DNA of 64,000 bases from an uncultured Alphaproteobacteria bacterium (lineage in GTDB: Bacteria > Pseudomonadota > Alphaproteobacteria > VGEJ01): NCBI GenBank assembly GCA_913041535.1, contig CAJWJK010000002.1, positions 138,793-202,792 on the forward strand, given 5' to 3'. Positions 18,579-64,000 of this stretch are shown here, in pieces. The notes beneath the pieces were generated by a model that did not search any database, was not told the origin of the DNA, and saw only the letters and a program-made list of their open reading frames with translations. The translations under genes were made by a program, and so were the position numbers. Position 1 is the first letter of the stretch. Each line of letters begins with the position of its first letter.

Positions 18579-18581
18579 GTC

Positions 18582-46169: not shown

Positions 46170-46174
46170 CGGCC

Positions 46175-47311: not shown

Positions 47312-47364
47312 GGTCTTCTAGCTCAAATGTTATTGGCTGTTCGGTTGCTATACGGAACTAGTGC

Positions 47365-48054: not shown

Positions 48055-48096
48055 TATCGTGGAAGGAATATCTGTTTTGGAACGGTTGATTGTGTA

Positions 48097-50013
48097 ATGC
48101 AGAAAATCTTTACGGCTGCAATGGGGCGAACCGGGACCAATAACTTGGCTGTATTATTTAACAAGTTCGGCCAGGGGTGCATAGCAGAACATGAGCCTCC
48201 GGCTCTACTACTCCAACAACTCCAGGAGCAACCGTTCTTTGATCGATATCCAAGTCTTCGTCCTAAGGAGAGATTGGCACAAGTGGGGCGAGATCTGCAA
48301 CGGCGTTACATTGTCACTGACGAGATGCTTGGGCGCGGGCGGGCACTAAACTGGTATGATTCTGGCGACACGGATAAACTGCTTAAATTGGTGAATTGGA
48401 GGCTTCGACGGATCGACCGCTTTTCAAAACGTGGTTACAAACACTACGTTGAGTCGAGTCAGTTCTTTTTGCGTACGTACTGTTATCAAGTGCACAATGT
48501 TATACCTCACGTCGGTGTAATTAAGTTAGTACGGGATCCGCTTGAAACGGCTCGAAGTTCAGCAAATCGTAAGAAAGCCTTGTTTCAGAATAACTTACCG
48601 CCGGATTGTAGAAGTAATCATTTTCGCATCAAAGAATGGCAGGATCTAACGCCATTTCAACATTATGTTCATACATGGATAGAGACTGAGGTACGGTGGG
48701 AGGAATTTGTTAAATCGACAGACCTTAAGAGATTTTTCGTCATTGAAACACGGGATCTTAGCAATAGTGAGCGGATAACCGAAATGTTCAAATTTTTTGG
48801 CATTGAACATAGGCCCGTTAAAGATCTCCGTCCGACTAACACAAATACTGAGATATCTCTTCCGGGCACACAGGTTTCTATACGTGACCATGAGGAATTT
48901 ATGAGAGTGGTGGATAAACTTCCTCAGACACTTCGGGACCGGATACCGCAACTGGAACGTTATGTTTCAGATCGAGACGAATCGGCCAGCAGTTTTTCCT
49001 TGCGTCTTGGAGAGGCCCGCAAGAGTCGGCCGGTAATGGGCTCTCCACAACTCGGGCGTCTTATTGCTGATTTTCCAATGACCGCGGTCGATATTGGAGC
49101 ACGTGGTGGCGTAATTCAGGACCTGCTGCCAATTGCTCAGGTGGTTGATGCAGTGGGGTTCGAGCCGGATGAAGAAGAATGTGTCCGTCTTAGCGCAGCG
49201 GCAGCCCTAAAAGAGGGGCCGTGGCGTAGTGAACAGTATCTTCCTGCGGCGCTTTCTGGCAACAGTGGGCCGCGAACACTGTATCTCACGCGTCATCGTG
49301 GGACATCTTCAATGATGAAGCCTATCCCGGGCTTTGGGGAAAGTTACTCTCGACCTGATTACTATTTTATCGAGGGGAAAGTTGAGGTTGATACAATTAC
49401 GCTTGATCAGGCTGTAATAGAACACGAACTAGGTAAACCGGTATATTTAAAACTCGATATTGAGGGGATGGAAAAAGAGGTTATTGAGGCTGCACCATTG
49501 ACCATGAATCATCTTCTTGCAGTCCGCACAGAGGCTGTATTTCTACAGCCAAGAAAAGGTCAGCCGTCGTTTCACGAACTCGATGGTTGTCTACGGAGCT
49601 TTGGTTTTATTCCGATGGGATTTGAGGAAATACACCATTGGCGGCGGTTAAGTCAGGTTAAACCGCCAGAGACTATTCCTGGTCCGGTACCCTACTCGCG
49701 AGGCCAACTTGCGCACTGCGATATGCTTTATCTTAAGGACTTTCAGTTGATGTCTGAAGAGACAGAGGTGGAAATCACGCGCTTAATTCAAATGGCGTTT
49801 ATTGCGCTTTGTTATGACTATGTGGATCACGCCCTAGCAATCTTCTCACTCCCCGCAGTCGAGTCGCTTTTAGTGGGGACTTATGGTATTGATATTAAAA
49901 GAGAAATTAGTATTGTGTCCCATGAGCTACTTGCACGTCACCGTCGGACAAGGAGGCGCAAGTCATGGCTTGGCTTCAGGGGGACAACATCTCGTAGGTT
50001 GCGTCCAACATAG
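48097..50013 (+). CDS. Bifunctional sulfotransferase-domain / FkbM-family methyltransferase fusion protein
   Basis: The N-terminal half has sulfotransferase motifs (MQKIFTAAMGRTGTNNL 5'-PSB, KLVRDPLETARS 3'-PB). The C-terminal half is an FkbM domain (MTAVDIGARGGV...LKLDIEGMEKEVIEAAP). The ATG at 48097 avoids the overlap with the upstream convergent gene that the ORF-track start (47986) creates. Confidence 0.6.
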   Translation: MQKIFTAAMGRTGTNNLAVLFNKFGQGCIAEHEPPALLLQQLQEQPFFDRYPSLRPKERLAQVGRDLQRRYIVTDEMLGRGRALNWYDSGDTDKLLKLVNWRLRRIDRFSKRGYKHYVESSQFFLRTYCYQVHNVIPHVGVIKLVRDPLETARSSANRKKALFQNNLPPDCRSNHFRIKEWQDLTPFQHYVHTWIETEVRWEEFVKSTDLKRFFVIETRDLSNSERITEMFKFFGIEHRPVKDLRPTNTNTEISLPGTQVSIRDHEEFMRVVDKLPQTLRDRIPQLERYVSDRDESASSFSLRLGEARKSRPVMGSPQLGRLIADFPMTAVDIGARGGVIQDLLPIAQVVDAVGFEPDEEECVRLSAAAALKEGPWRSEQYLPAALSGNSGPRTLYLTRHRGTSSMMKPIPGFGESYSRPDYYFIEGKVEVDTITLDQAVIEHELGKPVYLKLDIEGMEKEVIEAAPLTMNHLLAVRTEAVFLQPRKGQPSFHELDGCLRSFGFIPMGFEEIHHWRRLSQVKPPETIPGPVPYSRGQLAHCDMLYLKDFQLMSEETEVEITRLIQMAFIALCYDYVDHALAIFSLPAVESLLVGTYGIDIKREISIVSHELLARHRRTRRRKSWLGFRGTTSRRLRPT

Positions 50014-50122
50014 CTATAGTAATACCGCGCGTTTCTAATAGGTTGGGCATGGGTGGCGATCTGCACATAGCAATCTATGCTGCTGTTGAGGAAACAGTGA
50101 TTCACCCAAAACGCGTCTCTCT

Positions 50123-51022
50123 CTAAAGACAATACCCGTATTCTTTCAGTGGCAAGCCGGTTTTCTCCACTAGTGTGAGATTGCTTTGGCGGTATCGTTC
50201 GCGCAATAGTTTCTGCCATCGGTGGGGAATTTCCAAACGGTGTTTCTGGCCTCGCTTTAGGGAATCAAGAAAATACCTACGCAACAGATTGGGAACATAC
50301 TTTTTTAAGCTGAGGTTTGGGAGAATTACTCTCCGAAGGTGGTTATAGCGCACCTCGTTCAGTGTTCGAGCCACATTTTCACGATCATTACCAATTAATT
50401 GTATTCCTTCCTCAGGCGGTATGCCGAGAGTACAACAGAGTTTACCAATAAACGTCACCGGATCATCTCTGAGCTGTTCGTATAGAAACACGTGAACGCT
50501 ATCAGCTCCAAAAAGTTGTTGGTAACACGAGACTAACTTATCGTATTCCAGGTGGTGTAGCGTTCCATTAACACGATTGTTCCAAGATGCCTCTATCCAA
50601 TTATCAAATGAGGATGGGGTATAGTGTTTGCCTAGCTGCTGCCTATAAAAAGAAGGTAAATAGTCGAGCTGTTCTCGGATACAGACAATGATTGTTGCTT
50701 CTTTTGAGATTTCCTTAAGCCTATTTGCAATTAATCCACGGTCCGCATGTTGGGGGAGACAGAATAGTTCTACAGATACGACAACAATATCACTTTTATT
50801 GAGGTGCTGACCCACGTGTTCGTCATAACCACGTTGGGCTAGTTTGGAGTCGTATTCAAGGGAGTCGCATCCGTAAATTAGAGTTGCCCATTCCTCTACT
50901 TTTCGGGAGCTCCAGGGTTTTCCCACTAGCCTTATCTGGTGGTGACGCGCAAACAGCAGATTCTGTAACGTGGTGGTAGCAGTTTTTGGGTACCCAATAT
51001 GTAAGATCGGCGTTGATGTCAT
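50123..51022 (-). CDS. Sulfotransferase-family protein
   Basis: ILHIGYPKTATTTLQ (5'-PSB) and IREQLDYLPSFY (3'-PB-like). The start is taken at the internal Met (MTSTPIL) at 51022. The ORF-track start is 51061. Confidence 0.6.
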   Translation of the reverse strand: MTSTPILHIGYPKTATTTLQNLLFARHHQIRLVGKPWSSRKVEEWATLIYGCDSLEYDSKLAQRGYDEHVGQHLNKSDIVVVSVELFCLPQHADRGLIANRLKEISKEATIIVCIREQLDYLPSFYRQQLGKHYTPSSFDNWIEASWNNRVNGTLHHLEYDKLVSCYQQLFGADSVHVFLYEQLRDDPVTFIGKLCCTLGIPPEEGIQLIGNDRENVARTLNEVRYNHLRRVILPNLSLKKYVPNLLRRYFLDSLKRGQKHRLEIPHRWQKLLRERYRQSNLTLVEKTGLPLKEYGYCL

Positions 51023-51182
51023 GCGTCTAAAGAAAAGTTGTGAGTGAATCGTGGCAACCACATTCTGACTGACCAGATATTAAGGGACTAGCCAACGAAA
51101 ACCAATCAGTATGGAGATATTAACTGTGTCTACTATACTAAAACGAAAACTTGATGTGCTCACAAATCTGGATGATCGGTAG

Positions 51183-52973
51183 CTAAGGGAGCTTACCAGC
51201 CATCGCTTTAAATGACTCACTATTGCTGACAAGGTACTCGTAACTACCAGTTGCAACTATGCGACCACCTTCAATGATGTGAATAGCATCACTAAATTGA
51301 ACGGTATGAAGACGGTGTGCGATAGTAACGGTTGTTATTGTACCGGCTAAATCTCTAATAGTTTCAGTGACGATACTTTCAGTCACATTGTCCAGTGAAC
51401 TCGTAGCTTCATCCAGAACTAGAAGCTGCGGTCGGCGGTAGAGTGCACGGGCAATGGCTAGGCGTTGCAATTGTCCGCCACTGAAACGAACACCGCTCTC
51501 ACCGAGTCGTGTGTCATAACCATCTGGTAGGTCCCCAACAATAAAATCATGGATATGCGCTTTCTTTGCTGCTTCAATAACTGAACTGGTATCAATCTCA
51601 TCATAGGAGACAGCAAAAGCAATGTTCTGTGTGATACTATCGTCGAGGTAATGTACGTGCTGGGGCACATAAGCTACTTGTTGCTGCCATGCCCGAAGAT
51701 TTTCGTGTGTGAGAATCACATCATCTATAAGGACCTTTCCATTTGTGGGTACCAATAACCCCATTATGGTTTCGACCAGCGTAGATTTCCCTGCGCCCGT
51801 CGCTCCCACAAAGGCTATGCTGCTGCCTTTTTCGACAACTAAACTAATGTTATCGATAACATCTGTGTCTTCGCTGGGATAGTGGTATGACACTTGGTCA
51901 AGGGTAATCTCTTTAAAGAAAGGCAGGGGTGGAGGAGGTTGCTGATCGGTAGTAACGGGCGCTGTAGCTGCGCTACTAAATTCTTCCACCAAACTTTTTG
52001 CCACGGCATAAGATGTCCGCATTTGACTAATCGATTGGAATAGTTGGGAGAGAAGTGGGATTAGCCTATACCCAGCCATCGCGAATAAGGCAATAATTGC
52101 AATGCTATCTGACGAGCGGCCCTCTGAATCTAAGGTCGATAGCACCACCGCTAGCAGCCCTACAAACACGACTGTTTCGATCAGGTAGCGAGGTAGCTGC
52201 GCAATCAAGACTTTGCCAATTCCGATACGCGACAATCGTTTAGCAGCCATCCAAAAAAGGTTGGAGAAGTAATTTTCCCCGCCTTGAAGTTTAAGTTCCT
52301 TAATACCTCTAAATGCCTCATCTGTAGTCCGAAATGCTTGCTCCGTGGCAATGCGACCCTGATGACCTAACCAGGTTGAACGATAGCGAATCAATAAATA
52401 GATACAGACGTAGATGCTTCCTAAGCTTAGTACTGCAAGTCCTGTTACCATGGGTTCTTGCCATAGGAGAAACGCCAATATTGCAATTACGGTCAAGGCG
52501 TTTGAGAACACCATGATACCAGCAACCAAGTAACCAGATGTGAGCTGGGCTACCTCCACTAGGAGATTCTTGCGAAGTTCCCCTGTGTTGAGGGTAAGAA
52601 ACGCCTCATAACGTTGTTCTAGATAATGGCGCATACGTCGGTACGACAGGCGGTGTATCATCGTCTGTGCAAAATAGGTGCGAAAAAACAATGATGCTGC
52701 ACCTACAATATTTCGGAAAATGATCACAAAAATTAGTCCCAACCCGCTGTATGTTAGAAAATCTGTGTCACTCGAACTCCCCAAAGTTTCGCGGGCCTGC
52801 GATAATATTTGCGAACTACTTATTAGTGATGGATCTGCAACAATGCGGACGTAGGCGACAATTGAGCCGATGCCTGCCACTTCAGCAGCCGATAAGACAA
52901 TTGCCAAAAATAGAACCCATATAGCTAGCCAACGGTCCTGTCTTGATAATATTTTAAGGAGTTTTACTAACAA
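51183..52973 (-). CDS. ABC exporter with a fused permease and ATPase (MsbA/PglK/NdvA-like type I exporter)
   Basis: 596 aa with a six-helix N-terminal transmembrane domain. The nucleotide-binding domain carries Walker A GATGAGKST, signature FSGGQLQR and Walker B LLVLDEATS. Confidence 0.85.
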   Translation of the reverse strand: MLVKLLKILSRQDRWLAIWVLFLAIVLSAAEVAGIGSIVAYVRIVADPSLISSSQILSQARETLGSSSDTDFLTYSGLGLIFVIIFRNIVGAASLFFRTYFAQTMIHRLSYRRMRHYLEQRYEAFLTLNTGELRKNLLVEVAQLTSGYLVAGIMVFSNALTVIAILAFLLWQEPMVTGLAVLSLGSIYVCIYLLIRYRSTWLGHQGRIATEQAFRTTDEAFRGIKELKLQGGENYFSNLFWMAAKRLSRIGIGKVLIAQLPRYLIETVVFVGLLAVVLSTLDSEGRSSDSIAIIALFAMAGYRLIPLLSQLFQSISQMRTSYAVAKSLVEEFSSAATAPVTTDQQPPPPLPFFKEITLDQVSYHYPSEDTDVIDNISLVVEKGSSIAFVGATGAGKSTLVETIMGLLVPTNGKVLIDDVILTHENLRAWQQQVAYVPQHVHYLDDSITQNIAFAVSYDEIDTSSVIEAAKKAHIHDFIVGDLPDGYDTRLGESGVRFSGGQLQRLAIARALYRRPQLLVLDEATSSLDNVTESIVTETIRDLAGTITTVTIAHRLHTVQFSDAIHIIEGGRIVATGSYEYLVSNSESFKAMAGKLP

Positions 52974-52994
52974 AGCCGGGTATTTATTTCATTT

Positions 52995-54098
52995 TCAGTA
53001 AAGTGATTGCCAAGCTTGCGGAGGTGGTTGTTTGGGTGTTATGAGCTCCAGTCCTTCAGTGCACATAAACTTTCCCAGCATCAACATCTTGTTTTGTAGA
53101 CTCGGCAAAGAGAGGATAGCGCTCAACGCCACATGTCGTGACACTGTGCGCAGTTCATAGCCGAATCTCTCTGCCGTATTACCAGAGATTGAGCTAATGA
53201 TTGATAGTTCTCGTTCGTCCAGCTGATCGCTCCAGCGCGTCATGGGAACCTTGCTAATTCCTCCATAGCTCTCGTCTCTGCTATTTGTAGCACCTCCACT
53301 AATGGTTTGAAGTAGCGCTTCCAATTGATCGTTTCTAAGACCATCCCCTACCATGAATGTGTACAGACGATTTAGTTCTGCACAGGGGTCCTGTACAAAG
53401 TCTTCATAACGAACCCAGGTCACAGATCCAGGATTCTGAGATGTGAACCGAAGCATCATAAGTGTTGTAAAGCGCCAATAGAGACTCATTTGTATGATAT
53501 CGGTAAGGGTATTTTCAGTTGTATCGGATCGCTGTTTCCGTCGAGCGTTGCGTCGTGCATTGGACAAGATCACCGATCGGGGGTCGCGAACGACAAATAC
53601 AAAGCGCGCCATGGGCAGAGAACGTCGTATTGTAAGTAAACCACGCCAATTATTGGCCTTATCGATCCAACACTCTAACGAAGGCAACTCTTTATCAAAG
53701 TTGTTACTGAGGGAGTAGAAGAGTGGGTAAAGCTTATACAGTTCAGAAAAGCTTTTTCGCTTTAAGGCTCCTGCATAGCGACGACCAAGAGAGTTTGGTT
53801 CAAATTCATCCTTGCCTCTTATTAGATCCCGTGGGGGAAAGTAACGTGGGGCACACAAAAGGGTTCGCCACGTTCGTTCGTCTACGCGGTTTCTATATTT
53901 CCAGACACGATTTACAAAGTATGTTTCTCCTGGAAGGCTCATAGCCCGAGGATGGAGGCCAAGAGAGCGAAAAATCACAGAAGTTCCGCTACGCGTTGGA
54001 CCCATCAGATATACTAGGCGAGAAAGCATTTCGTCGCTCGGTTCTACGAGCGAGGCTGAATTAGTTTGTATCGTGGTTTGGGTGGTATCTTTAATCAT
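52995..54098 (-). CDS. Sulfotransferase-family protein
   Basis: LMGPTRSGTSVIF (5'-PSB PxxSGTT-like) and FVFVVRDPRSVILS (3'-PB RDP...S). Confidence 0.65.
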   Translation of the reverse strand: MIKDTTQTTIQTNSASLVEPSDEMLSRLVYLMGPTRSGTSVIFRSLGLHPRAMSLPGETYFVNRVWKYRNRVDERTWRTLLCAPRYFPPRDLIRGKDEFEPNSLGRRYAGALKRKSFSELYKLYPLFYSLSNNFDKELPSLECWIDKANNWRGLLTIRRSLPMARFVFVVRDPRSVILSNARRNARRKQRSDTTENTLTDIIQMSLYWRFTTLMMLRFTSQNPGSVTWVRYEDFVQDPCAELNRLYTFMVGDGLRNDQLEALLQTISGGATNSRDESYGGISKVPMTRWSDQLDERELSIISSISGNTAERFGYELRTVSRHVALSAILSLPSLQNKMLMLGKFMCTEGLELITPKQPPPQAWQSLY

Positions 54099-54106
54099 AG
54101 AGAGAC

Positions 54107-54799
54107 CTACGACTCAATCTCCCGAATGACAGAAAAGGCTTCAGCTGCTTCGAGACCAACGCTGGCGCCTCGCAGGTGGGCAAGAGCTGTAACTGCTTGG
54201 ATTGAGCGGGCGTGTGGAAAGGGTGCAATTTCTTCAGCGTAGCAGTTCAAGGCTCTAATTTTCTGGTCGAGTTGTGGTGTGACGTCTACAAATCGGTTGG
54301 GGGAAAAGGGAATGGCAGTTGATGCTGGTCTCCACTCAGTACTCGACAGGGTTTCAAATGCGTATAAACCACGGATTATGCTTTTTGGAATTGGTCGACA
54401 GGCCGTCACTACTGCTTCGTGGGTAATTCTGTGGTCAATGTTTAAATCTCCGCCATGGTGGGTATAGACGCGAGTCGGTTTAAATTTATCGATAATAGGC
54501 TCAATATGTCTGATTATATCGAGAAGGGGTAAAGTATCGAGCTTATTGTCAGGCAGGTGCGCGTGATGTGGGGGCAAATATCCTAATATATTTGCTGCTT
54601 TCTTTGCTGCATCGACGAGTAGTGGCACACTAGATCTGTGAACATTGCCTCCTACACCCGTGTCTCTGGAGGTAGCACCTTCACCAAGTATTATGACGTT
54701 AACGGGAATTTGTGCGCTGGCGTATCGTGCCAGTGTACCTCCAACTCCTAGTACTTCATCGTCAGGATGCGCGACTACGGCCAAGATGCGTTCGGTCAT
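54107..54799 (-). CDS. PIG-L/LmbE-family de-N-acetylase
   Basis: ILAVVAHPDDEVLGVGGT is the signature motif, with a downstream HxxH. The start is taken at Met (MTERIL) at 54799. The ORF-track start at 54862 would overlap the upstream gene. Confidence 0.8.
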   Translation of the reverse strand: MTERILAVVAHPDDEVLGVGGTLARYASAQIPVNVIILGEGATSRDTGVGGNVHRSSVPLLVDAAKKAANILGYLPPHHAHLPDNKLDTLPLLDIIRHIEPIIDKFKPTRVYTHHGGDLNIDHRITHEAVVTACRPIPKSIIRGLYAFETLSSTEWRPASTAIPFSPNRFVDVTPQLDQKIRALNCYAEEIAPFPHARSIQAVTALAHLRGASVGLEAAEAFSVIREIES

Positions 54800-54807
54800 C
54801 GTACAGT

Positions 54808-56103
54808 CTAACTCTTTGGACGCACTTGGAAGACTGGCTGAATGAGTTCTCCACGCATCCAATCAGCTGGGTTACTGGACGAAAGGGCTTTGGAAACACT
54901 GTACATAGCCTGTTTCCATGCTGACTTTGTGTTCGCGAACACCTGATCATCGTCGTGGGCCAGGCATAGGTTGAAGGCACTTCCCATAAATATACCATTT
55001 TCAATTAGTTCTTGACGGAGCAGGCTTGTGGCGAGGATAGGGTTTTTGTCTCTGCTAGTCACAACTGGTCGCCAGTCAGGCCCCCCCACGTTGAATCGTG
55101 TGGTCAGATTTAAACTGTTAAGGACTTCCCTCGCCATTGACTTAAGTCTAGCACCAAGAGTGCTCATCCGTTTAGTGGCATCGGTTGCTTTCAGCTTATC
55201 AATCGTGGCTATAGCGGCCGCTAAAGATAAAGCTTCGCCACCGAAAGTAGTAGAAAAAAATATTTTCTCCAAGTGGGTCATAATCTCCGCTCGGCCTACC
55301 AGTGCAGCAATAGGCATGCCATTAGCCATAGCCTTTCCAAAGCATGCGAGGTCTGGGGTAACGCCGTAAAATTTCTGGGCTCCCCCAAGGTCGATCCGAA
55401 ATCCCGTAATAATTTCATCAAATATCAACACGCTGCCGTAGAAGTTCGCGAGCTCTCTGACTTCCTTAAGGAATCCACTACGAGGATCTTCCATGCCCGC
55501 CGGCTCTAGAATAATTGCAGCGAACCCGTCAGGATCGTTGGAAAGTAAGCTTTCTATCGAATTCACATCGTTATACTTAAATTGAGATGATAAAGACTGT
55601 ACCGCCTCTGGCACGCCTAAATTGCGCGTGGTTGTTCCTATATACCAATCGTGCCAGCCGTGATAGCCGCACACGGCGACACGATCACGTCCTGTATGCG
55701 CGCGGGCCAGTCGGATCGCTGCGGCGGTGACGTCGGAACCGTTCTTTCCGAATCGCACCATATCTGCACACGGAATCAATTCAAGAAGGCGTTCAGCGAG
55801 CTCCAGCTCCAACTCAGTCGCAAGAGAAAAAATTATTCCCTTGTCTAGCTGTGTACGGATCGCCTTATCGACATCAGGGTCCTGATAGCCCAGAACGATA
55901 GGAAGCAACCCGAGCACATAATCTACATAACGGTTATCATCAACATCCCAGACAATTGCTCCCGCGCCGCGATTGAAAAAGTTTGGTGATACCCCTTTTG
56001 GAAAGTTCAGAGCTGACTTTGAATGTGTCTGCGTAGCTAATGGGATCGACTGAAGAGTTTTTCTGTACAGATCATCTGATAATGAGAAGTCTCTATATGC
56101 CAT
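54808..56103 (-). CDS. Class-III PLP-dependent aminotransferase (glutamate-1-semialdehyde aminomutase-like)
   Basis: 431 aa. DEIITGFRIDLGGAQKFYGVTPDLACFGKAMANGMP contains the PLP Lys region. The N-terminus is GSA-AT-like (GAIVWDVDDNRYVDY). Confidence 0.8.
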   Translation of the reverse strand: MAYRDFSLSDDLYRKTLQSIPLATQTHSKSALNFPKGVSPNFFNRGAGAIVWDVDDNRYVDYVLGLLPIVLGYQDPDVDKAIRTQLDKGIIFSLATELELELAERLLELIPCADMVRFGKNGSDVTAAAIRLARAHTGRDRVAVCGYHGWHDWYIGTTTRNLGVPEAVQSLSSQFKYNDVNSIESLLSNDPDGFAAIILEPAGMEDPRSGFLKEVRELANFYGSVLIFDEIITGFRIDLGGAQKFYGVTPDLACFGKAMANGMPIAALVGRAEIMTHLEKIFFSTTFGGEALSLAAAIATIDKLKATDATKRMSTLGARLKSMAREVLNSLNLTTRFNVGGPDWRPVVTSRDKNPILATSLLRQELIENGIFMGSAFNLCLAHDDDQVFANTKSAWKQAMYSVSKALSSSNPADWMRGELIQPVFQVRPKS

Positions 56104-56402
56104 GATTTTTCGGGTGTTTAGGAGAAGGGATATACAGTATACGAGGGAATGGAACTACATCTATTTCCATGCTCCAAAGAAGTCCGTATCCAATACGGCA
56201 TTAGAGATCTCATTGTTTATTAACTTCTGGTTGGAGCAGGACTCATGCTAGCCATTGCGAGGACAAGAGCGAGCCGTGTGGTTGCGGAATGATGTTTCAT
56301 CGATAAGATGTTTATTTAATATAGGCTTGATCGTAAAGTACTGTTTCAATCATACTTTCGCTGTAGGTCTGTTTCATCGATTTAATCTAATATTTCGGTG
56401 CC

Positions 56403-56984
56403 ATGGTGATTCCAATGGATGTTTTGCTCCTTTCGCCGTATCCGGAAACGCTAATACCAATATTGCGCAAGGGTTCAGATGTCCGAGTGACCACAACCGA
56501 TGCGGAGATATCTAGTTGTCCTGATACAGAGTTTATCGTGGTATATGGTTATAAACACATCCTCCGCGACCCTATTCTTAGTAAGTTTTCTGGACGAGTT
56601 ATCAACCTCCATGTTTCTTTGTTGCCGTGGAATCGGGGTTATGATCCAAACTTCTGGTCATGGCTTGAGAATACGCCGAAGGGCATTAGTATTCATCAAG
56701 TTGACTCTGGCATCGACACGGGGCCGATTCTTGTGCAGGAATCCGCTGTTTTGGGCGGAGATGATGAAACGTTAAAGACCTCGTATTGGAAGCTTCGCCG
56801 TCAGATTGAGAGCCTATTTGCTCGCAAATGGCCCTACATCTGTAATGGCGATATTGAGCCACAGGAGCAACAAGGTTTAGGTTCATTCCACTTGGCCAAG
56901 GATCGCTTGCCTTACTTTACAGAAATGCCGTTGGGTTGGGATACTCCCGTAAGAATACTGGAGGAGTGGAGCAGTAAGCGCTAG
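56403..56984 (+). CDS. Formyltransferase-domain protein (N10-formyl-THF-dependent, likely sugar N-formyltransferase)
   Basis: 193 aa. INLHVSLLPWNRG contains the catalytic HxSLLPxxRG, and an SIH..D region follows. The protein is the Formyl_trans_N domain only. Confidence 0.7.
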   Translation: MVIPMDVLLLSPYPETLIPILRKGSDVRVTTTDAEISSCPDTEFIVVYGYKHILRDPILSKFSGRVINLHVSLLPWNRGYDPNFWSWLENTPKGISIHQVDSGIDTGPILVQESAVLGGDDETLKTSYWKLRRQIESLFARKWPYICNGDIEPQEQQGLGSFHLAKDRLPYFTEMPLGWDTPVRILEEWSSKR

Positions 56985-57039
56985 GAGGCTCGAATCATAG
57001 CCTCTAAAGTGATGGGGTGGCGACTATAATGCATCAGGA

Positions 57040-57753
57040 TCATATGGTTCTGTTTTGCGTGCGAACGCAGTTGTTCTCTATTACGTATTGAAGGATATCA
57101 CTCATAGTAAAGTCTGGGTTTTGGGGGTAAAGGGCTCCATAAATGTTACGGATAAATGCCAAATCGTCTGGATAATCCACGGTCCAACGGTGGTGAGACA
57201 GATCTGGGCACCCTGTCAAATGACCAGTATGGAACTCTCCGGATCTCAGGTATGGAGTTACGTGTTCCCGGTCTATATCAGTTTTAGCCTCGCGCCAAGC
57301 TCTTCTCAGTGCGCTAAGCCTACAGATTTCTACGTCGAGTCCGTCTGGAAATGAGCGAGTCTCTATATTCGAGGTATAGTCGAATTCTCCAGAGAAATGT
57401 TGTGATACAGTTGCATCGATAATGGTCGGGTCAATCAATGGGCAATCGGCTGTTAGTCGCACTATATGGTCAGGCTTGTATAGGAGGGCTGCTTGGTAGA
57501 ATCGGTCCAAAACATCATCCAATGAACCTCTAAAGGATTTGGTTGAAGACCGCTCGCAAAGTTCCACTATGACGTCGTCACTCGATTGGTCACTGGTTGC
57601 GACCACTAGTTCGTCAATCTCCTGTGCTCTGCGAATGCGGCGAATCTGATGCAACATCATCGGCTCACCAAGAACTGGTGCCAGGACTTTCCCGGGGCAT
57701 CTGCGAGATGACATGCGAGCTTGCAGTATACAGAGTATCATTATTGCGGCCAT
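57040..57753 (-). CDS. Cytidylyltransferase of the acylneuraminate/SpsF/PseF family (CMP-sugar synthetase)
   Basis: ILQARMSSRRCPGKVL matches the IQARxGSxRLPGK motif of CMP-NeuAc/CMP-Pse/SpsF cytidylyltransferases. Confidence 0.75.
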   Translation of the reverse strand: MAAIMILCILQARMSSRRCPGKVLAPVLGEPMMLHQIRRIRRAQEIDELVVATSDQSSDDVIVELCERSSTKSFRGSLDDVLDRFYQAALLYKPDHIVRLTADCPLIDPTIIDATVSQHFSGEFDYTSNIETRSFPDGLDVEICRLSALRRAWREAKTDIDREHVTPYLRSGEFHTGHLTGCPDLSHHRWTVDYPDDLAFIRNIYGALYPQNPDFTMSDILQYVIENNCVRTQNRTI

Positions 57754-58661
57754 TTGCGCGGATCAATCACACTCAATTTGTGAACGGCAAATGGTTCAAA
57801 CCCCTTAATGTCTGTTTTGGGCAAGCGATAAGCATCTAATATATCTTTCAGCTGTTTTACGGAGCACACACCGACAACTATGGCGTGCACTGAAGGTTGG
57901 CGTTTAATGAAATCAATAGCTGCTTGCATTGGTGTTATTCCAAGGCGAATGAGTGTATTCCTGTAGTTGAGAAGTGTGCCCATGACACATTCAAAATGTG
58001 GCGGGAGTTGATCCGGAGACATTAACAGCGCGCCCTGTAGAAATGCCGATCGAGCGTGCACCTCTATGCTTGAGTCTTTGAGCTGAGAGAGAATGCCTGA
58101 TGAAAAAAACCTCTGATCCAGTACGTTAAGCGGAAGCTGTATTAGATCAATTCTATAACGATCAAGAATTTTTTCTGTCTGTAGGGGTTCATATACTGAC
58201 ACCCCCACCTTAGCTACTTTCCCTAACTCTTTAAGTCGCATGGCTCTTTCTATAAGTCTTTCCCCACCCTCTGTTAGAAGATCATCGCCGCTATGAATCA
58301 AAAGCCCATATAACATCTCGAGCCGCATGTATTTGAGAGATGTATTCAACGAATTTTCGAGTATATTGGCATGGTCGTTGCTGATGTGCTGGCATCCAAA
58401 CGCTGGAGATTTAGTCACAATCTTAAATTTGTGTTCCGGGCGGATGATACCGCCTATGATTCTTTCTGCATCTCCGTATACGGCTGCAGTATCAAGAATG
58501 GTGACCCCTTCTTCGGCCGCATAGTCGAGAATCTCCCGAACTTCGGATATGGCGGGTCGGATTCCTCTATTAGCAATTCCATAGGGTAATCCAAATTGGA
58601 CGGTACCCAGCCCAATTTGCAATCGGTTAGTTAATATAGGTCCGACGGTGCTGGAGATCAT
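57741..58661 (-). CDS. Aldo/keto reductase
   Basis: LGTVQFGLPYGIANRG...ILDTAAVYGDAE is the AKR N-terminus. Its end overlaps the cytidylyltransferase by 13 nt. Confidence 0.8.
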   Translation of the reverse strand: MISSTVGPILTNRLQIGLGTVQFGLPYGIANRGIRPAISEVREILDYAAEEGVTILDTAAVYGDAERIIGGIIRPEHKFKIVTKSPAFGCQHISNDHANILENSLNTSLKYMRLEMLYGLLIHSGDDLLTEGGERLIERAMRLKELGKVAKVGVSVYEPLQTEKILDRYRIDLIQLPLNVLDQRFFSSGILSQLKDSSIEVHARSAFLQGALLMSPDQLPPHFECVMGTLLNYRNTLIRLGITPMQAAIDFIKRQPSVHAIVVGVCSVKQLKDILDAYRLPKTDIKGFEPFAVHKLSVIDPRKWPQ

Positions 58662-59935
58662 ATTTGAAGGTAGCTCATCAGAATGTGAAGTTCTGGGTCA
58701 AATAAGTTTGGCTTGCGAAAAAACGACATGTGCTGTGTTTTTACATTCGAGTAGTTGAAATGTCGGGTGAGCAATCCAACTAAGAGGCTGTATGGAATGC
58801 GAAAGATTTCATAGCGTTCGTCGTCAATATTGTTCTCTTTTACGCGAGTCACTTTGGTATTGGCTAGGCTAAGCCTGTATAGCTCGCTTTCTCCTACGTC
58901 GATGAAATAGGTGGCTTGGGATTTTGTGTCTGTACGATCCTGCCATTTCTTCTGATTCAATCTTGCCGTTGTAAGCATTCTTGTGAGATCAATCCTCTCT
59001 GATGGGGCAATATAGAAATTTCCTCCCTCATCAAATGGGCCAGATATGCGTGATATAGATTCTACATAACCCCTTTCACTACTGAACCCGCGTTCATTAA
59101 ACTCCCCAAACCGTTGGCCCGTATGAAGGTCAAATTGGCATCCCTCAGATAGCAATACAGGAGTAAAATCATAGATAGATTGCGCGTAGTCAATGGCGTC
59201 CTGAGCCTGCCCAGTGCCATAATATGGATAAAGTAACGCCTTGTCTCCGCCGTACAAAGCTTCTGCAGCAAACAGGAACACATACTCTGGTGTTAGAACG
59301 CGTATAAAATTTGCGAGCGTTTCATAGTTCCGTTCCGTTTTTCTCTGAGCCTCTCTGGTTTTTTCTTCCGGAGTCAGGTTTTCATAAAACGCTGGATACG
59401 GGCCTAGATAATTAAATGGAACACAAGCTAGATCAATTGGCCCATAAAGGTTCTTTAAAAGGGTGAGTTGTTCTTCATGAAACGGGTTATCGTTGGCGTT
59501 TAGAATTCGCTTCCCATCAATGCAAAATATTCCTAAGGAGTCTACCTCTGAGTAAACCTCCGAAGGATGCAGCCAACATCGGTCTTGGCCATTAAGCAAT
59601 AGCCCTGTTTTAGGATCAGAGACACGAACATCGGTGAAACCAAGTCGACGGACAGCGCGCTCTGTGAAGTTGTGCTCGTAGTAGGAGACGATCACAGGGG
59701 TGGAGAGATTAAATAATGAAAGTGTGTCTGGGTCAAAGTGGTCGGCATGGGTATGGGTTATGTAGATAAAGTCAGGATTTAATGCAGATACATCATTCCG
59801 AGAAAGTGTCGTTTCGGGAAAATTATACAACCCTGACCGAGAGGTCCGTTCGAAAGTAACCCATGGATCACAGAGAACCCGGGTATTCTCCCCCTCAAGA
59901 AGCATCATAGCGTTTACGAAATAGGTGATCTTCAT
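58658..59935 (-). CDS. MBL-fold metallo-hydrolase domain protein with a C-terminal extension of about 220 aa and unknown function
   Basis: FIYITHTHADHFD is the HxHxDH zinc motif. The C-terminal half has no recognisable motif. A 4-nt overlap links it to the AKR gene. Confidence 0.55.
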   Translation of the reverse strand: MKITYFVNAMMLLEGENTRVLCDPWVTFERTSRSGLYNFPETTLSRNDVSALNPDFIYITHTHADHFDPDTLSLFNLSTPVIVSYYEHNFTERAVRRLGFTDVRVSDPKTGLLLNGQDRCWLHPSEVYSEVDSLGIFCIDGKRILNANDNPFHEEQLTLLKNLYGPIDLACVPFNYLGPYPAFYENLTPEEKTREAQRKTERNYETLANFIRVLTPEYVFLFAAEALYGGDKALLYPYYGTGQAQDAIDYAQSIYDFTPVLLSEGCQFDLHTGQRFGEFNERGFSSERGYVESISRISGPFDEGGNFYIAPSERIDLTRMLTTARLNQKKWQDRTDTKSQATYFIDVGESELYRLSLANTKVTRVKENNIDDERYEIFRIPYSLLVGLLTRHFNYSNVKTQHMSFFRKPNLFDPELHILMSYLQI

Positions 59936-60029
59936 CGGCGATCCTACGCGACCGTTTGGTGGTCTATTAATCTAGAGAGACGCTGGTTTGTGAAGAGATT
60001 GCCATAACAATGGTTAAAAGTAAGTTGCA

Positions 60030-60761
60030 CTAGCCTTCTTTGTCCTTGACGATATATCCGGATGGTTGGCGGGTCCACGAAAATGATTGGATTCTAGCGT
60101 TGGGGAGTGTTTCACGTATTGCAATAGCTTCCCCGGGGGACGTCTCCCAGTTGAATTCGTCCAGAACGAGAATTCCACCCGTGTTAAGGCGTGGCCAAAA
60201 GTGAGTCACAGCCGCCTTTACAACTTCGTATACCCCTGCATCGATGAATACAAGCTTGAAGTGAGCTGAGGGAAAAGTTGTAAAGAATTTATCCAAGTCC
60301 TTTGTAATATCCAATTTATGCAGCCGAGCAATGTGTCCTAGATCTTGAATGTCGATGAGGTTTCGCAGCGTATCGTAGTCTGCGCCGCACTTTCCTGGCT
60401 GAACTGTACCGTCCATCTTGCCGGGGTCCATGCCTTGGAACCAATCCAAACCATGAACTAAGGTGTTACTGTTGGGTTCAAAAATATCGACGAGTTTTGC
60501 CCAATATAAAAATGATGCTCCCTTCCATACGCCGATTTCAGCTACGTGTCCGGCAAGATGAGATGTCATCTTGTATAACTCGTAAAGTGATAATTGCCTG
60601 GCGATATTTGCGGATCCATTGAACGCGCCGTTATGATGGATGTAATCAAGTATCGGATGGTTACATGCTAAAATTCTGTCAACGGATTGGTGATAGCTAG
60701 CGTCATTTTTGAATTTGCTAACTTCAAAGTTCTTAACGTCCAAAATGACATCATCAGTCAT
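60030..60761 (-). CDS. TylF/MycF-like class I SAM-dependent O-methyltransferase
   Basis: GHVAEIGVWKGASFLYW is motif I. FIDAGVYEVVKAAVTHFWPRLNTGGILVLDEF matches the TylF family LDxDxYEST...GG.ixxDDY pattern. Confidence 0.55.
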   Translation of the reverse strand: MTDDVILDVKNFEVSKFKNDASYHQSVDRILACNHPILDYIHHNGAFNGSANIARQLSLYELYKMTSHLAGHVAEIGVWKGASFLYWAKLVDIFEPNSNTLVHGLDWFQGMDPGKMDGTVQPGKCGADYDTLRNLIDIQDLGHIARLHKLDITKDLDKFFTTFPSAHFKLVFIDAGVYEVVKAAVTHFWPRLNTGGILVLDEFNWETSPGEAIAIRETLPNARIQSFSWTRQPSGYIVKDKEG

Positions 60762-60822
60762 CGCAGAATACTCCTACTGTATAAATCTAGAGGCTCAGGA
60801 TAAGCACGTATTTTTAGCGTTG

Positions 60823-62022
60823 TTAGAGCAAATCGTCTTGGTTATCGGGTGGAATTGGCGCCATAGTAAGGAATGGTCGGATAACTACTCCGTCGCGGAT
60901 TTGCAGCGGTTCTGTGGGTAGACCTAATAGAGTGCGCACTAACTGAGCTGGAAAGTTTCCACCAGCCGCAAATGAACCGCCAACTGACCCGCTAAATCTA
61001 GATCCAGCATCAAATAAAAGAGGCTGCTGTCCGTTTGCCAACACGATATCAAAATCACCAGCGCCGTCGACCTGAAAGGCTGAACACAACTTTTTTGCAT
61101 AGTCTAATACAGTGGGATCCATTGTTACCCGATGGCCCGTGCTGGTAGGCCAGAAAGGGTTTCTTAGTTGACGCAGGCGTGCCGCAATGTCGGAGAGTTT
61201 TCCGGCCGTCGCTATGCAATCAACATCAAATACTGGTCCTTCATAATAGGGAACGCAAATCAGCCGTTCGAAAGTCATGTGTTCTTGTTCCATGGCGATG
61301 CAAAGGTCTTCAAAACTACCGGTGCCGCAAAAGCGTTCGGGTAGCAGCGGGTGGAAACTATCTTTCTTTGCATCGGCGATGAGCACCCCTCGAGAACCAC
61401 GACCCTCGCGTGGTTTGATGACAACGCGATGATCAGGATATCCCATGGTGTACACGGCATCTTTTGCCTCATAGAGCGTGTTGACGCCAATGAATGGTCC
61501 GGTATCGATCTCTAGGTCTTTAAGCTTTTGAAGCATCAATAATTTGTCTGTCATAACACGGACTGTATCTATGCTACTAACGGACGGTTTGATGCCTTTA
61601 CTTAATAATACTTCGCGGTGTTTTGCAGCGAGCCGGGACTCTGCTTCGGACAATGGTATATATACATCCAAGCTGATCTGTTGGTGCAGGGAAAGCAAGG
61701 AATCAAGATACCGTTCCTCATCATTCTCTGCCATTGGAAGGACATCAAAACGGTCACATAAAAGGCGTCCAGCTGCGTTCGGGTCAGCATCAATGCCGAC
61801 TATTCGTGCATGAAAATCAGTCGCGGCACGTAATGCTCGAATAAAATCATAGATCAAGCGTCCACCGACGCACGTAACGCACACGGTCACTGTAGGAACG
61901 GACGCGTGAGACCCTTTGATGGCCACTCGACTAGTAATAGGACAAGAGGCTTGACCCTGTCCTATGAAAGGAACCGTCCACAGAAATGTCGAGACGAGCG
62001 TTACTGATCTGGTGGGGGCCAT
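60823..62022 (-). CDS. ATP-grasp domain enzyme
   Basis: VVIKPREGRGSRGVLIAD is the ATP-grasp central-domain motif. The N-terminus VTCVGGRLIYDFIRALR resembles a pre-ATP-grasp Rossmann fold. The ORF-track start overlaps the upstream PhyH gene by 92 nt. GTG at 61890 is an alternative start. Confidence 0.55.
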   Translation of the reverse strand: MAPTRSVTLVSTFLWTVPFIGQGQASCPITSRVAIKGSHASVPTVTVCVTCVGGRLIYDFIRALRAATDFHARIVGIDADPNAAGRLLCDRFDVLPMAENDEERYLDSLLSLHQQISLDVYIPLSEAESRLAAKHREVLLSKGIKPSVSSIDTVRVMTDKLLMLQKLKDLEIDTGPFIGVNTLYEAKDAVYTMGYPDHRVVIKPREGRGSRGVLIADAKKDSFHPLLPERFCGTGSFEDLCIAMEQEHMTFERLICVPYYEGPVFDVDCIATAGKLSDIAARLRQLRNPFWPTSTGHRVTMDPTVLDYAKKLCSAFQVDGAGDFDIVLANGQQPLLFDAGSRFSGSVGGSFAAGGNFPAQLVRTLLGLPTEPLQIRDGVVIRPFLTMAPIPPDNQDDLL

Positions 62023-62884
62023 ATACCTGACGGTTCGCTCTGTCTAAAAGAGAGTCTGTTCCAGAATTAGGTGATTTGCTTAGAAGATATCTCAATGAGA
62101 TACGCGGAGCCGCGCTGTTATTCGGGCCTGTCCCATGCAATGTTAAACAGTGAAAACTAAACACAGTCCCTGGCTGGCCTACTACCGTTTCTTCGGTACA
62201 CGTTTCATGGTTTCCATTGAAGTCTGAATAGTACCATAGACTTGTGTTAAGGTGGGATCGGCGTAGAAGGTGAGGGTAGTGTGTCATTCCAAGTTTATGG
62301 CTGCCAGATAAAATATGTAGCGCTGAGTCGCTTTCGTCAACTTCGTCAAGATAGATATATACCGTAACAAAATTTGAATTGGGACGAGTCTTATCCTGAT
62401 GGAAGTCAGTTGATAGAAAATACTGAATATCCTGAAACTCGTCTTTAATAAATGGATTTAGGTTTGGCCGTCCAACTTCGCTAAGATAGCCAGTCATCCA
62501 GTCTGGAATAACGCTATGTGGCACTGACCGGATTACTGATTTCTTCATAATGGAGTAGTCTTTTCCAACCAATTCTGTTGCAAAACACTTAAACTCATAA
62601 TTATTCTCAATAAATGCTAAGTCGACTTCCGGGCTGATTAAGAGATTGTGATCAGCTCTCCCAGGAGCATAATTACTCCACCGCCCTTTTTCATTGAAGG
62701 CATCTTCGCTGTGATAGAATATGGTGCTATCAATTGGTCTGCGGTCATCGATCCATTGCCGTAACGAGTGGCAAGGTTTTGGATCAAGAATTGTTCCACC
62801 GGTTGCCCACCCCTTCTCGGAGAATTCGGAGATGGTAAAGTGCGTCTTGGAGGTATGGGGTTTCGATAATTTAGGATCTGTCAT
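61931..62884 (-). CDS. PhyH-family Fe(II)/2-oxoglutarate-dependent dioxygenase
   Basis: FHQD is an HxD facial-triad motif. HCLTLHGTGPN...RISLRY supplies the distal His and the Arg for 2OG binding. Confidence 0.7.
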   Translation of the reverse strand: MTDPKLSKPHTSKTHFTISEFSEKGWATGGTILDPKPCHSLRQWIDDRRPIDSTIFYHSEDAFNEKGRWSNYAPGRADHNLLISPEVDLAFIENNYEFKCFATELVGKDYSIMKKSVIRSVPHSVIPDWMTGYLSEVGRPNLNPFIKDEFQDIQYFLSTDFHQDKTRPNSNFVTVYIYLDEVDESDSALHILSGSHKLGMTHYPHLLRRSHLNTSLWYYSDFNGNHETCTEETVVGQPGTVFSFHCLTLHGTGPNNSAAPRISLRYLLSKSPNSGTDSLLDRANRQVYGPHQISNARLDISVDGSFHRTGSSLLSYY

Positions 62885-62944
62885 TTTACTACCGGCAGCA
62901 ACATTGTTCTGTGCGGCGTTGATTCAATATGCTCGATTTGGTTT

Positions 62945-64000
62945 TCATGATGCGGAAGAATCTCGGGAAGATCCACCGTCATTATTGGACGAACTGGTGT
63001 CATCATAGCGCCGTTGATTGAGAGCGTGCACATACGCACGAGCACAGGCCATATTTGGATCGGCGCCCGAACCCTCGCCTATAAGATCTCTTGTACCATT
63101 ACCTAGTTGTACAGTGACCTTAGTTTGTGTGTTGTCATTCATAGAAAGGCCGTTGAGGCGAACAAAAGCCAACTCATCGTCGTGAGGCACCAACTGCTTT
63201 ATTGCGCTTATAATAGCGGAGAATGAACTTTCACCGGTTGCATTTGCAGTCATTGTTTCTGGCCTGCCTCCCACAGAAAGGGTGACATTTGCCTCTGCTG
63301 TTGCGTCGGCCATAGTCGTAATGTTTAGTGACGTCACTCCAATGTGCTCTTTCTTCTTGAAAGTGGCATCTTTAACGGTATCAATTATTTCTTCGGCGAG
63401 CGATCCAATATCTTCATCAGAGATTTCCTTCTTGCTGTCAGCTAGAGCTTTGAAGCGTTCAAATGCTTCAGCTAAGGCATTTTCGCCAAGAGTGTAACCC
63501 AATTCAGATAGCTTAACGCGAAGAGCGTGGCGACCCGAGTGTTTTCCCATAACAAGCTGTGTCCCGCTGGCACCAACAGCTTTTGGGTTGATTATCTCAT
63601 ATGTTCCTCGATGACTAATGACACCATGCTGATGAATTCCCGATTCATGTGCAAATGCATTGCTGCCAACAATGGCCTTATTTGGCGGAACCACGAATCC
63701 TGTTATGTTTGACACGAGTCGTGACGCTTCTGTGAGAAACTCCGTATCTATGCCAGTGTGGTACGGCATCGCGTCATACCGGGTCTTCAGTCCCATGACG
63801 ATCTCTTCGAGAGATGCGTTGCCAGCTCTCTCTCCAAGGCCATTAATCGTACATTCGACCTGAAGAGCACCTGCTTGAACAGCCGACAGAGAGTTTGCTG
63901 TCGCAAGTCCGAGATCATCGTGACAATGTACAGATATTCGCACTTTATCAATTCCAGGAACCCTTCGCAGGAGATCTTTGATGAGCGATGAGAACTCGTG
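62945..64000 (-). CDS. leuA: 2-isopropylmalate synthase-like (LeuA/DRE-TIM family) protein. The C-terminal part is present and the N-terminus lies beyond the window end.
   Basis: HCHDDLGLATANSLSAVQAGALQVECTINGLGERAGNASLEE is the LeuA catalytic TIM-barrel motif. The C-terminal LeuA_dimer regulatory domain is present. The frame remains open to position 64000. Confidence 0.8.
   Translation of the reverse strand, partial: HEFSSLIKDLLRRVPGIDKVRISVHCHDDLGLATANSLSAVQAGALQVECTINGLGERAGNASLEEIVMGLKTRYDAMPYHTGIDTEFLTEASRLVSNITGFVVPPNKAIVGSNAFAHESGIHQHGVISHRGTYEIINPKAVGASGTQLVMGKHSGRHALRVKLSELGYTLGENALAEAFERFKALADSKKEISDEDIGSLAEEIIDTVKDATFKKKEHIGVTSLNITTMADATAEANVTLSVGGRPETMTANATGESSFSAIISAIKQLVPHDDELAFVRLNGLSMNDNTQTKVTVQLGNGTRDLIGEGSGADPNMACARAYVHALNQRRYDDTSSSNNDGGSSRDSSAS

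Follow-up and report, generated by a model that had tools for sequence, protein, structure and literature searches.

A probable nonulosonic acid gene cluster with a recurrent LeuA-like and ATP-grasp accessory set in an uncultured alphaproteobacterium

We have analysed a 64,000-nt stretch of DNA from an uncultured marine alphaproteobacterium, referred to here as the window, and in particular nine open reading frames (ORFs) between positions 54107 and 62884, along with a LeuA-like gene that lies next to them and runs off the window edge. We consider it probable that this region is the distal part of a cluster, embedded in a capsule or exopolysaccharide (EPS) locus, that makes a heavily decorated CMP-5,7-diamino-3,5,7,9-tetradeoxy-nonulosonic acid of the pseudaminic/legionaminic type. 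The core of the cluster is already known; the new point is the presence of the LeuA-like gene in a recurrent, unstudied accessory set with an ATP-grasp gene. A first-pass annotation had described a nucleotide-sugar biosynthesis and tailoring module with a CMP-type cytidylyltransferase, a predicted N-formylation step, and ATP-grasp, PhyH and methyltransferase proteins that looked like tailoring enzymes. These points were all supported: the nine ORFs are present with their boundaries as annotated, each domain call was reproduced using Pfam and NCBIfam, the cytidylyltransferase is of the CMP-ulosonic-acid type, and the formyltransferase proved to be homologous to PseJ.

The nonulosonic acid core of the cluster

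Several marine metagenome contigs from Tara Oceans and JGI encode the SpsF-type cytidylyltransferase (CTase; 57040..57753, minus strand; a 233-aa gene call). One Tara Oceans contig, L001/L086, is 100% identical to window positions 47040-64000 over 16,961 nt; beyond base 64000 it carries the remainder of the LeuA-like gene, a NeuB-family synthase, a 629-aa protein and then the C-terminal half of a PseG-like protein. The NeuB-family gene (PF03102) lies two genes beyond base 64000, and the lack of a NeuB-like synthase noted in the first-pass annotation is an artefact of the window edge. The NeuB homologue scores under the curated cut-offs for both PseI (TIGR03586; 240 against 340 bits) and NeuB (261 against 400 bits) and is 32% identical to PseI of Aeromonas caviae. 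Its best match in the PDB is Bacillus subtilis SpsE, and by PDB sequence comparison it is equidistant from SpsE, PseI and NmNeuB. The partial PseG-like ORF (L086:1-642) encodes the C-terminal 213 residues and matches positions 145-278 of the 280 in TIGR03590 with 78.7 bits, the cut-off of 153.6 bits being that for the full-length protein. When A. caviae PseB and PseC were used as tblastn queries no match was seen in the 64-kb window or on L001, in agreement with the earlier statement that no DegT/PseC-type gene is present in the window; all available contigs end just upstream, inside the PseG-like gene, and the negative covers the locus up to that point. No homologue of PseH was found in the window or on L001. 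We also note that four independent assemblies (L086-L089) break 0.2-0.7 kb upstream of the 629-aa gene, within the PseG-like gene, and this common breakpoint hints at strain-level variability or a repeat there.

To place the CTase in context, an alignment of its homologues was scanned against one genome per GTDB species, yielding 80 loci from very diverse bacteria, among them Aeromonas, Janthinobacterium, Leptospira, Nostoc, Paenibacillus, Legionella and Zixibacteria. Across these loci tblastn revealed the remarkably uniform gene order PseB-PseC-AKR-CTase-AT3-PseG-(PseH/formyltransferase/LmbE)-PseI, where AKR is an aldo-keto reductase and AT3 a class-III aminotransferase; PseB was present in 63 loci, PseC in 65, AKR in 62, AT3 in 62, PseG in 54 and NeuB/PseI in 64. 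The AKR gene is immediately upstream and the AT3 gene immediately downstream of that for the CTase in 62 of the 80. The window has the same trio on its minus strand, between 58661 and 54808, and the PseJ-type gene is inserted between CTase and AT3 on the opposite strand. The AKR (57741..58661; PF00248/Aldo_ket_red) has an intact D-Y-K-H tetrad that can be read in its sequence, and AT3 (54808..56103; Aminotran_3) is a pyridoxal phosphate (PLP) enzyme resembling glutamate-1-semialdehyde (GSA) aminomutase, whose best family, PRK06209, is matched with 396 bits, under the cut-off of 486. In A. caviae CECT 838 the neighbours of the CTase include PseI (500 bits, cut-off 340), PseG (323 bits, cut-off 153) and a Maf transferase. 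This layout of AKR, CTase and AT3 has been published as group I of the Aeromonas flagellin glycosylation islands (FGI), where the extra genes were left without an assigned function (PMC7874193).

The CTase itself matches PDB entry 6oew (E 4e-32) but gives just 25 bits with the PseF model TIGR03584 (cut-off 205.7), belonging instead to the SpsF-type CTP_transf_3 family (PF02348). This family fills the PseF slot in approximately 60 pseudaminic acid (Pse) cassettes, and the window protein is presumed to be a CMP-nonulosonate synthetase; B. subtilis SpsF, after which the family is named, is the putative CMP-legionaminic acid synthetase (PMC7439481). A CTase::AT3 fusion of 684 aa is encoded on contig L096 and an AKR::CTase fusion has been reported in Vibrio B9-25K2 (PMC7371886). 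In view of these fusions with the CTase, both the AKR and the class-III PLP enzyme probably work at the step of activation or close beside it. The first-pass annotation had found no match to the pseudaminic acid gene set and had considered a GSA-like aminotransferase unusual for a sugar pathway. For the core of the cluster neither view could be upheld, since the trio is the standard insert of widespread PseB-PseC-...-PseG-PseI cassettes, seen in around 60 of the 80 genomes, and an aminotransferase of this kind is normal beside the CTase in such a context. On L096 (15036-20202) the CTase::AT3 fusion is followed by genes for adenosine 5'-phosphosulfate (APS) kinase, ATP sulfurylase and pyruvate kinase, which could provide a local supply of 3'-phosphoadenosine 5'-phosphosulfate and phosphoenolpyruvate (PEP) within a sugar cluster.

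The formyltransferase (56403..56984, plus strand; 193 aa) has Formyl_trans_N as its sole domain. Its best solved relative is annotated as 'formyltransferase PseJ' (PDB 6ci2/6ci4, E 6e-43), a protein of 192 aa to which it is 45% identical over 154 aligned columns, and the next-best matches are to the formylation domain of linear gramicidin synthetase. It carries the HxSLLPxxRG motif, and comparison with A. kamchatkensis PseJ shows an INLHVSLLPWNRG motif and an aligned Asp. PseJ is described as the enzyme with which the Pse5Ac7Fo pathway became fully mapped (PMC11040635), and it is very likely, judging from these similarities, that the window protein is an N-formyltransferase of the same kind. 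Since PseJ-type enzymes formylate a 4-amino sugar directly, de-N-acetylation would not be needed before N-formylation.

This bears upon an alternative explanation for the region, which is that it encodes a CMP-linked amino-sugar pathway independent of nonulosonic acids, lacking NeuB and DegT, in which de-N-acetylation is followed by N-formylation. Such a pathway was the suggestion of the first-pass annotation, and would account for the co-occurrence of LmbE and a formyltransferase and for the absence of NeuB, PseB, PseC and PseH homologues from the 64-kb window itself. Against it, NeuB and the PseG-like gene are found in the same gene string just past the window edge, and the proposal is refuted if L001/L086, which matches the window at 100% identity across 16,961 nt, is taken to come from the same genome. 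In addition the CTase belongs to the family that occupies the PseF slot of Pse cassettes, the formyltransferase is PseJ-like, and LmbE correlates with the ATP-grasp gene, as described below. We therefore regard an amino-sugar pathway as very improbable.

The LeuA-like, ATP-grasp, PhyH, MBL and LmbE accessory set

On the minus strand upstream of the trio are genes that are not part of the cassette order described above. The C-terminal approximately 350 codons of the LeuA-like 2-alkylmalate synthase gene (62945..64000; HMGL-like, HCS_D2 and LeuA_dimer domains) fall within the window, and the full protein of 533 aa is encoded at L001:3196-4797. A distance of 60 nt separates the end of its stop codon, at 62945, from the start of the gene for a PhyH-family Fe(II)/2-oxoglutarate dioxygenase (61931..62884; PF05721, E 1e-11), in which an HxD...H motif (FHQD, LHGT) can be read. 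There follow genes for an ATP-grasp carboxylate-amine ligase (ORF 60823-62022, with a likely start at 61926 giving 60823..61926 and 367 aa; PylC-like_N and ATPgrasp_Ter), a class I S-adenosylmethionine (SAM) methyltransferase (MT; 60030..60761; Methyltransf_24, weak TylF) and a metallo-beta-lactamase (MBL)-fold metalloenzyme of 425 aa (58658..59935; a weak match to Lactamase_B_3, with the motif THTHADH). The LmbE/PIG-L de-N-acetylase gene (ORF 54107-54862, with a likely ATG at 54799 giving 54107..54799 and 230 aa; PF02585, E 2e-22) is located at the other end of the region, also on the minus strand.

Scanning metagenomes with an ATP-grasp alignment gave 51 loci, to which four fetched earlier were added to make 55. 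The ATP-grasp homologues number around 130 and are nearly all environmental; homologues carry labels that include Pelagibacterales, Rickettsiales TMED251, Methylococcales and Methyloceanibacter. Weak homologues (26-33% identity) of the MT and MBL genes occur in Aliiglaciecola sp. CAU 1673 (L039), but a culturable bacterium with the complete set was not identified. A LeuA-like gene accompanies the ATP-grasp gene in 23 of the 25 loci having at least 3.5 kb of upstream sequence, and the remaining two end before its expected position. Among all 55 loci we counted NeuB in 32, LeuA in 32, PhyH in 28, CTase in 27, AT3 in 25, a relative of the 629-aa protein in 24, MBL in 23, LmbE in 23, PseB in 18, PseC in 17 and PseG in 18. 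The PhyH homologues are 48-64% identical and adjoin the LeuA-like and ATP-grasp genes in the 28 loci where they occur. MT is confined to the closest relatives (5/55). Of the 21 ATP-grasp loci that span 12 kb or more, 16 contain LmbE, compared with 14 of the 78 CTase-anchored loci that lack ATP-grasp (odds ratio 14.6, p = 1e-6).

The same partners are also found in other arrangements. On L095, L096 and a Methylococcales contig, ATP-grasp homologues at 46-54% identity occur in different gene orders: L095 combines NeuB-LeuA(515 aa)-ATP-grasp with genes for AKR, CTase, AT3 and PIG-L and for two fusion proteins, one PhyH::Rieske and the other a formyltransferase fusion of 679 aa, and L096 has LeuA-like(387 aa)-PhyH-acyltransferase-MBL(426 aa)-614 aa-ATP-grasp-PseB-x-PseC-GNAT-NeuB-CTase::AT3. 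We conclude that LeuA-like, PhyH, the 425-aa MBL protein, ATP-grasp and LmbE form a recurrent accessory set, of which the LeuA-like gene, correctly placed 60 nt upstream of PhyH by the first-pass annotation but treated there as a mere neighbour, is an integral member and the obligate partner of ATP-grasp. No description of LeuA with ATP-grasp in nonulosonic acid clusters was found in the literature, and the accessory genes are not named in a 2026 survey of Clostridium Pse clusters.

It is nevertheless conceivable that the cluster makes a nonulosonic acid while LeuA is a housekeeping leucine gene and ATP-grasp adds an ordinary amino acid such as Ala or Glu. The full-length LeuA does exceed two LeuA equivalog cut-offs (NF002086, 679 against 532; TIGR00973, 641 against 599), falling below a third (NF002087, 711 against 729), and it keeps the leucine-feedback domain. 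The PylC-like N-terminal domain of the ATP-grasp protein points in the same direction, as PylC-type ligases are known to use amino acids, and N-alanyl and N-glutamyl derivatives of legionaminic and pseudaminic acid are known. It is not easily reconciled, however, with the presence of LeuA-like genes flanking ATP-grasp in 23/25 well-flanked loci with at least three gene orders, or with the size of these genes: in addition to a long form of 514-534 aa there is a short form of 383-405 aa without the regulatory domain, and many loci, L052 among them, have this short form, which is not a normal leuA. We consider a housekeeping role for LeuA to be unlikely. Past its LeuA_dimer domain the window protein ends in a Ser/Asn/Gly-rich tail, …DDTSSSNNDGGSSRDSSAS (window 62945-63000).

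The HxHxDH motif of the MBL protein is invariant. A profile search retrieved FrsH, a non-haem di-iron monooxygenase, with an E-value of 2e-11, and CmlA weakly, while its AlphaFold2 model has a predicted local distance difference test (pLDDT) score of 95 and, when compared with the PDB by Foldseek, ranks MBL hydrolases and CmlA/FrsH alike. One homologue is labelled 'UDP-MurNAc hydroxylase' by JGI. In an exhaustive profile search its best 150 relatives were stand-alone proteins of approximately 425 aa with no Rieske fusion. The protein may be a hydrolase or a di-iron oxygenase (of the CmlA/FrsH or CMAH/NamH kind), and profile and fold searches do not separate the two.

Several further features of these loci deserve mention. 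The 629-aa protein (L001 205-2094, approximately equivalent to window 65648-67537), encoded between the PseG-like gene and NeuB, has no Pfam or NCBIfam match; its relatives in 24 of the 55 ATP-grasp loci are full-length and 25-39% identical (for example, L096 7274-9118, E 1e-60), and it may be a nonulosonate transferase or an additional tailoring enzyme. A protein of around 600 aa that belongs to LIC12162 (PF27859), a new Pfam family, is encoded directly after the LeuA-like and ATP-grasp genes in L052 (17327-19162), L095 (11247-12998) and L144 (at approximately 11100), the three being 48-49% identical. The two fusions of L095 lie at 914-2158 and 3506-5545: the first is a 414-aa protein joining PhyH to a Rieske [2Fe-2S] domain, and the second, of 679 aa, unites a formyltransferase domain with a region that resembles an unknown 376-aa protein encoded on L093.

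The L093 contig carries a related ATP-grasp gene (25% identity) beside genes for phosphosulfolactate synthase and a phosphatase in place of LeuA, with MBL, CTase, NeuB and PIG-L also present, which suggests that the general scheme is an acid-making enzyme plus a ligase. The L093 cluster (7423-20726) is without PseB/PseC and encodes MBL, CTase, GNAT, NeuB, His_Phos_1, the ComA phosphosulfolactate synthase, ATP-grasp, a glyoxalase and PIG-L. It adjoins an ABC exporter and a KpsS-like Capsule_synth gene, with TrwC relaxase and NikA-like genes close by, and may specify a sulfolactyl-modified ulosonic acid on a mobile element.

A proposed pathway and its relation to known systems

The pathway proposed here as the most likely for the product of the cluster runs as follows. 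The 4-amino group of a UDP-4-amino-6-deoxy-hexosamine would be N-formylated by the PseJ homologue, this amine becoming N7 of the nonulosonic acid. The PseG-like enzyme would then remove UDP, and NeuB would condense the hexose with PEP. LmbE would take off the remaining N-acetyl group (N5), inherited from UDP-GlcNAc, and the freed amine would be re-acylated by ATP-grasp with a 2-alkylmalate-type hydroxy-dicarboxylic acid from the LeuA-like synthase, the acid having been oxidised by PhyH and possibly by the MBL enzyme. The TylF-like enzyme would carry out O-methylation of that acid and the SpsF-type enzyme would finally make the CMP-sugar. In terms of the accessory set, our tentative suggestion is that LeuA-like, PhyH, ATP-grasp, MBL and LmbE constitute a conserved uncharacterised system that adds a 2-alkylmalate-derived, hydroxylated and sometimes methylated acyl group to a nonulosonic acid, with the AKR/class-III pair providing a second modification step; this is a possibility to which we give rather less than even weight.

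A number of points weigh against this scheme. The functions of the accessory enzymes are predicted from sequence, and the order of steps is inferred throughout, as is the stage of acylation, which may fall on the UDP-hexose, on the free acid or on the CMP-sugar. We know of no glycan that has a 2-alkylmalate-type acyl group. The window LeuA keeps the LeuA_dimer regulatory domain and to sequence models looks like a housekeeping 2-isopropylmalate synthase. NeuB, below both cut-offs and equidistant from its PDB relatives, does not settle the stereochemical class (Pse, legionaminic acid (Leg) or other), and PseB and PseC are not visible on any contig of this locus, all of which end inside the PseG-like gene, so that the stereochemistry of the sugar is not established by that route either. 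Finally, the loci behind the locus counts and the LmbE statistic are not phylogenetically independent.

Shewanella oneidensis offers a functional precedent. There, sfmABCDE encode a NeuB-like protein, an IlvB-like thiamine pyrophosphate enzyme, a reductase, a methyltransferase and an ATP-grasp protein (PMC3765264), and the product is a nonulosonic acid of 274 Da to which a moiety of 236-264 Da, free of nitrogen and methylated to varying degrees, is attached (PMC3765264); the nonulosonic acid has a free or basic nitrogen and the substituent is large and oxygen-rich. As in the window, a NeuB-family protein, a C-C-bond-forming enzyme of the branched-chain-amino-acid type, a SAM methyltransferase and ATP-grasp occur together. 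In contrast to the window, the C-C-bond-forming enzyme is IlvB-like rather than LeuA-like, the ATP-grasp protein is of the ATP-grasp_4 type, PhyH, MBL and LmbE are lacking, and the target is flagellin.

Another possibility is that the LeuA-like enzyme adds acetyl-CoA to C2 of the NeuB product, giving a branched polyhydroxy di-acid that ATP-grasp joins to another nonulosonic acid activated with CMP. The NeuB product, as a 2-keto-3-deoxy acid, is itself an alpha-keto acid, NeuB and the LeuA-like gene are adjacent, approximately 50 nt apart, in every window-type locus, the clade of the window NeuB stands apart from PseI as well as from NeuB, and sfm pairs the equivalent three proteins with a two-part glycan of 274 + 264 Da. 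However, complete-looking loci such as L133 and L138 contain a single NeuB that is needed as the nonulosonate synthase, in the second architecture the LeuA-like gene is 10 kb from NeuB, and we know of no LeuA-family enzyme that accepts sugar keto-acids. Such a use of the NeuB product seems to us quite unlikely. The idea that the window NeuB is an SfmA-like second synthase was rejected as the principal interpretation, complete-looking loci holding one NeuB.

The core of the cluster can be compared with several known systems. Aeromonas FGI group I has AKR, an SpsF-type 'pseF' and a class-III aminotransferase in the order found in the window, with deacetylase and methyltransferase genes being optional (PMC7874193). 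The identity between Aeromonas and window proteins is 50-52% for CTase and 49-51% for AT3. The Aeromonas islands, however, have canonical PseB, PseC, PseG and PseI and a Maf flagellin transferase and are without LeuA-like, PhyH, MBL and ATP-grasp genes, whereas the window has a capsule/EPS context, no Maf and a divergent NeuB. The canonical PseB-C-H-G-I-F pathway of Campylobacter and Helicobacter shares the logic of UDP-sugar hydrolase, PEP-condensing synthase and CMP activation; the window differs in having a CTase that falls outside TIGR03584 (PseF) and a synthase that scores under the cut-off for PseI, and in that a PseJ homologue is present with no PseH found. With regard to the PseJ route to 7-N-formyl-pseudaminic acid (PDB 6ci2), the predicted window enzyme is likewise stand-alone, of similar size and has the formyl-tetrahydrofolate motif, but its PseB/PseC partners are not visible at the locus. 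The legionaminic acid pathway encoded by spsC-G/spsM in B. subtilis uses an SpsF-type CTase as in the window (PMC7439481), but it lacks AKR, AT3, LmbE, PseJ and ATP-grasp, and its product is plain Leg5Ac7Ac on spores. SpsG of B. subtilis is PseG-like.

Nonulosonic acids occupy the outermost position of bacterial surface glycans, and the N-acyl groups on them bear upon how these glycans are recognised by phages, grazers and immune systems. The enzymes behind most known N-acyl variants of these sugars are still unknown (PMC11040635). If our suggestion is right, the accessory system is spread through marine and freshwater bacterioplankton, and the AKR/class-III PLP step is common to Aeromonas, Janthinobacterium, Leptospira and Nostoc. 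Two testable gene sets emerge: the AKR/class-III pair with SpsF-type CMP-synthetases, which is found in very many genomes including those of culturable Aeromonas, and LeuA-like/PhyH/ATP-grasp/MBL/LmbE, which is common in ocean metagenomes. For annotation, the lesson is that a gene scoring above LeuA equivalog thresholds can belong to a glycan pathway.

Gene arrangement and the surrounding polysaccharide locus

The first-pass annotation had treated the minus-strand genes as one operon, tightly packed with overlaps of 4 to 13 nt. Overlaps are indeed seen between AKR and MBL (4 nt) and between CTase and AKR (13 nt, or 1 nt with an alternative start), but elsewhere there are gaps, of 4 nt between PhyH and ATP-grasp (using the likely start), 61 nt between ATP-grasp and MT, and 94 nt between MT and MBL. 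Because the formyltransferase gene is on the opposite strand the region must comprise at least three transcription units and is not a single operon. Consensus scans of the region for promoters and terminators gave site numbers no higher than in shuffled sequence. The order LeuA-PhyH-ATPgrasp-MT-MBL-AKR-CTase-FMT(-)-AT3-LmbE-sulfotransferase-ABC, in which FMT is the formyltransferase gene, is conserved in the closest relative, L090 (CTase approximately 70% identical), and since the same order is kept there the arrangement is not due to chance.

Upstream, within the window, are a gene for a YjbF/GfcB lipoprotein (33585-34322, minus strand), a gene for a 962-aa Wza-like Poly_export/SLBB protein fused to a C-terminal GfcC domain (34275-37163) and one for a 992-aa YjbH/GfcD protein (37150-40128). 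These export genes resemble those for group-4 capsule export, and with them begins a surface-polysaccharide locus that extends over at least 34 kb and also encodes a Wzz-like protein and three GT4 glycosyltransferases. Tailoring enzymes are unusually dense in the interval 43526-54098, with four sulfotransferase-like ORFs (45423-46169; 50123-51061, minus strand; 52995-54098, minus strand; and possibly the N-terminal part of 47986-50013), along with methyltransferases of families 24, 23 and 21 (FkbM, 675 aa). These genes suggest a sulfated, methylated polymer or glycolipid. An ABC exporter with fused ABC_membrane and ABC_tran domains is encoded at 51183-52973 on the minus strand, and the sulfotransferase and exporter genes follow LmbE in the same order in L090. 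Neither the window nor L001 gave a match to Maf, and no flagellin gene was found. Most probably the sugar ends up in a capsule or exopolysaccharide that is sulfated and methylated.

The genes could instead make a diffusible secondary metabolite, given that PhyH, ATP-grasp, MBL, TylF-like MT and LeuA-like proteins are common in natural-product clusters and that a fused ABC exporter adjoins them. They are, however, flanked on one side by the capsule export genes, the three GT4 glycosyltransferases and the Wzz-like protein, and on the other by NeuB, the PseG-like gene and CTase, and no non-ribosomal peptide synthetase, polyketide synthase or similar genes were seen; a product other than a surface glycan is, in our view, scarcely credible.

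The first part of the window (1-33000) has housekeeping content, including rsmB, ETF-QO, an SLT transglycosylase, TldD, coxB-coxA-ctaB, M32 and M16 peptidases, gcvT, gcvP and a GHMP kinase, which fits an origin that is chromosomal and probably alphaproteobacterial. Since the GC content stays flat (0.44-0.51), the glycan locus is not compositionally foreign.

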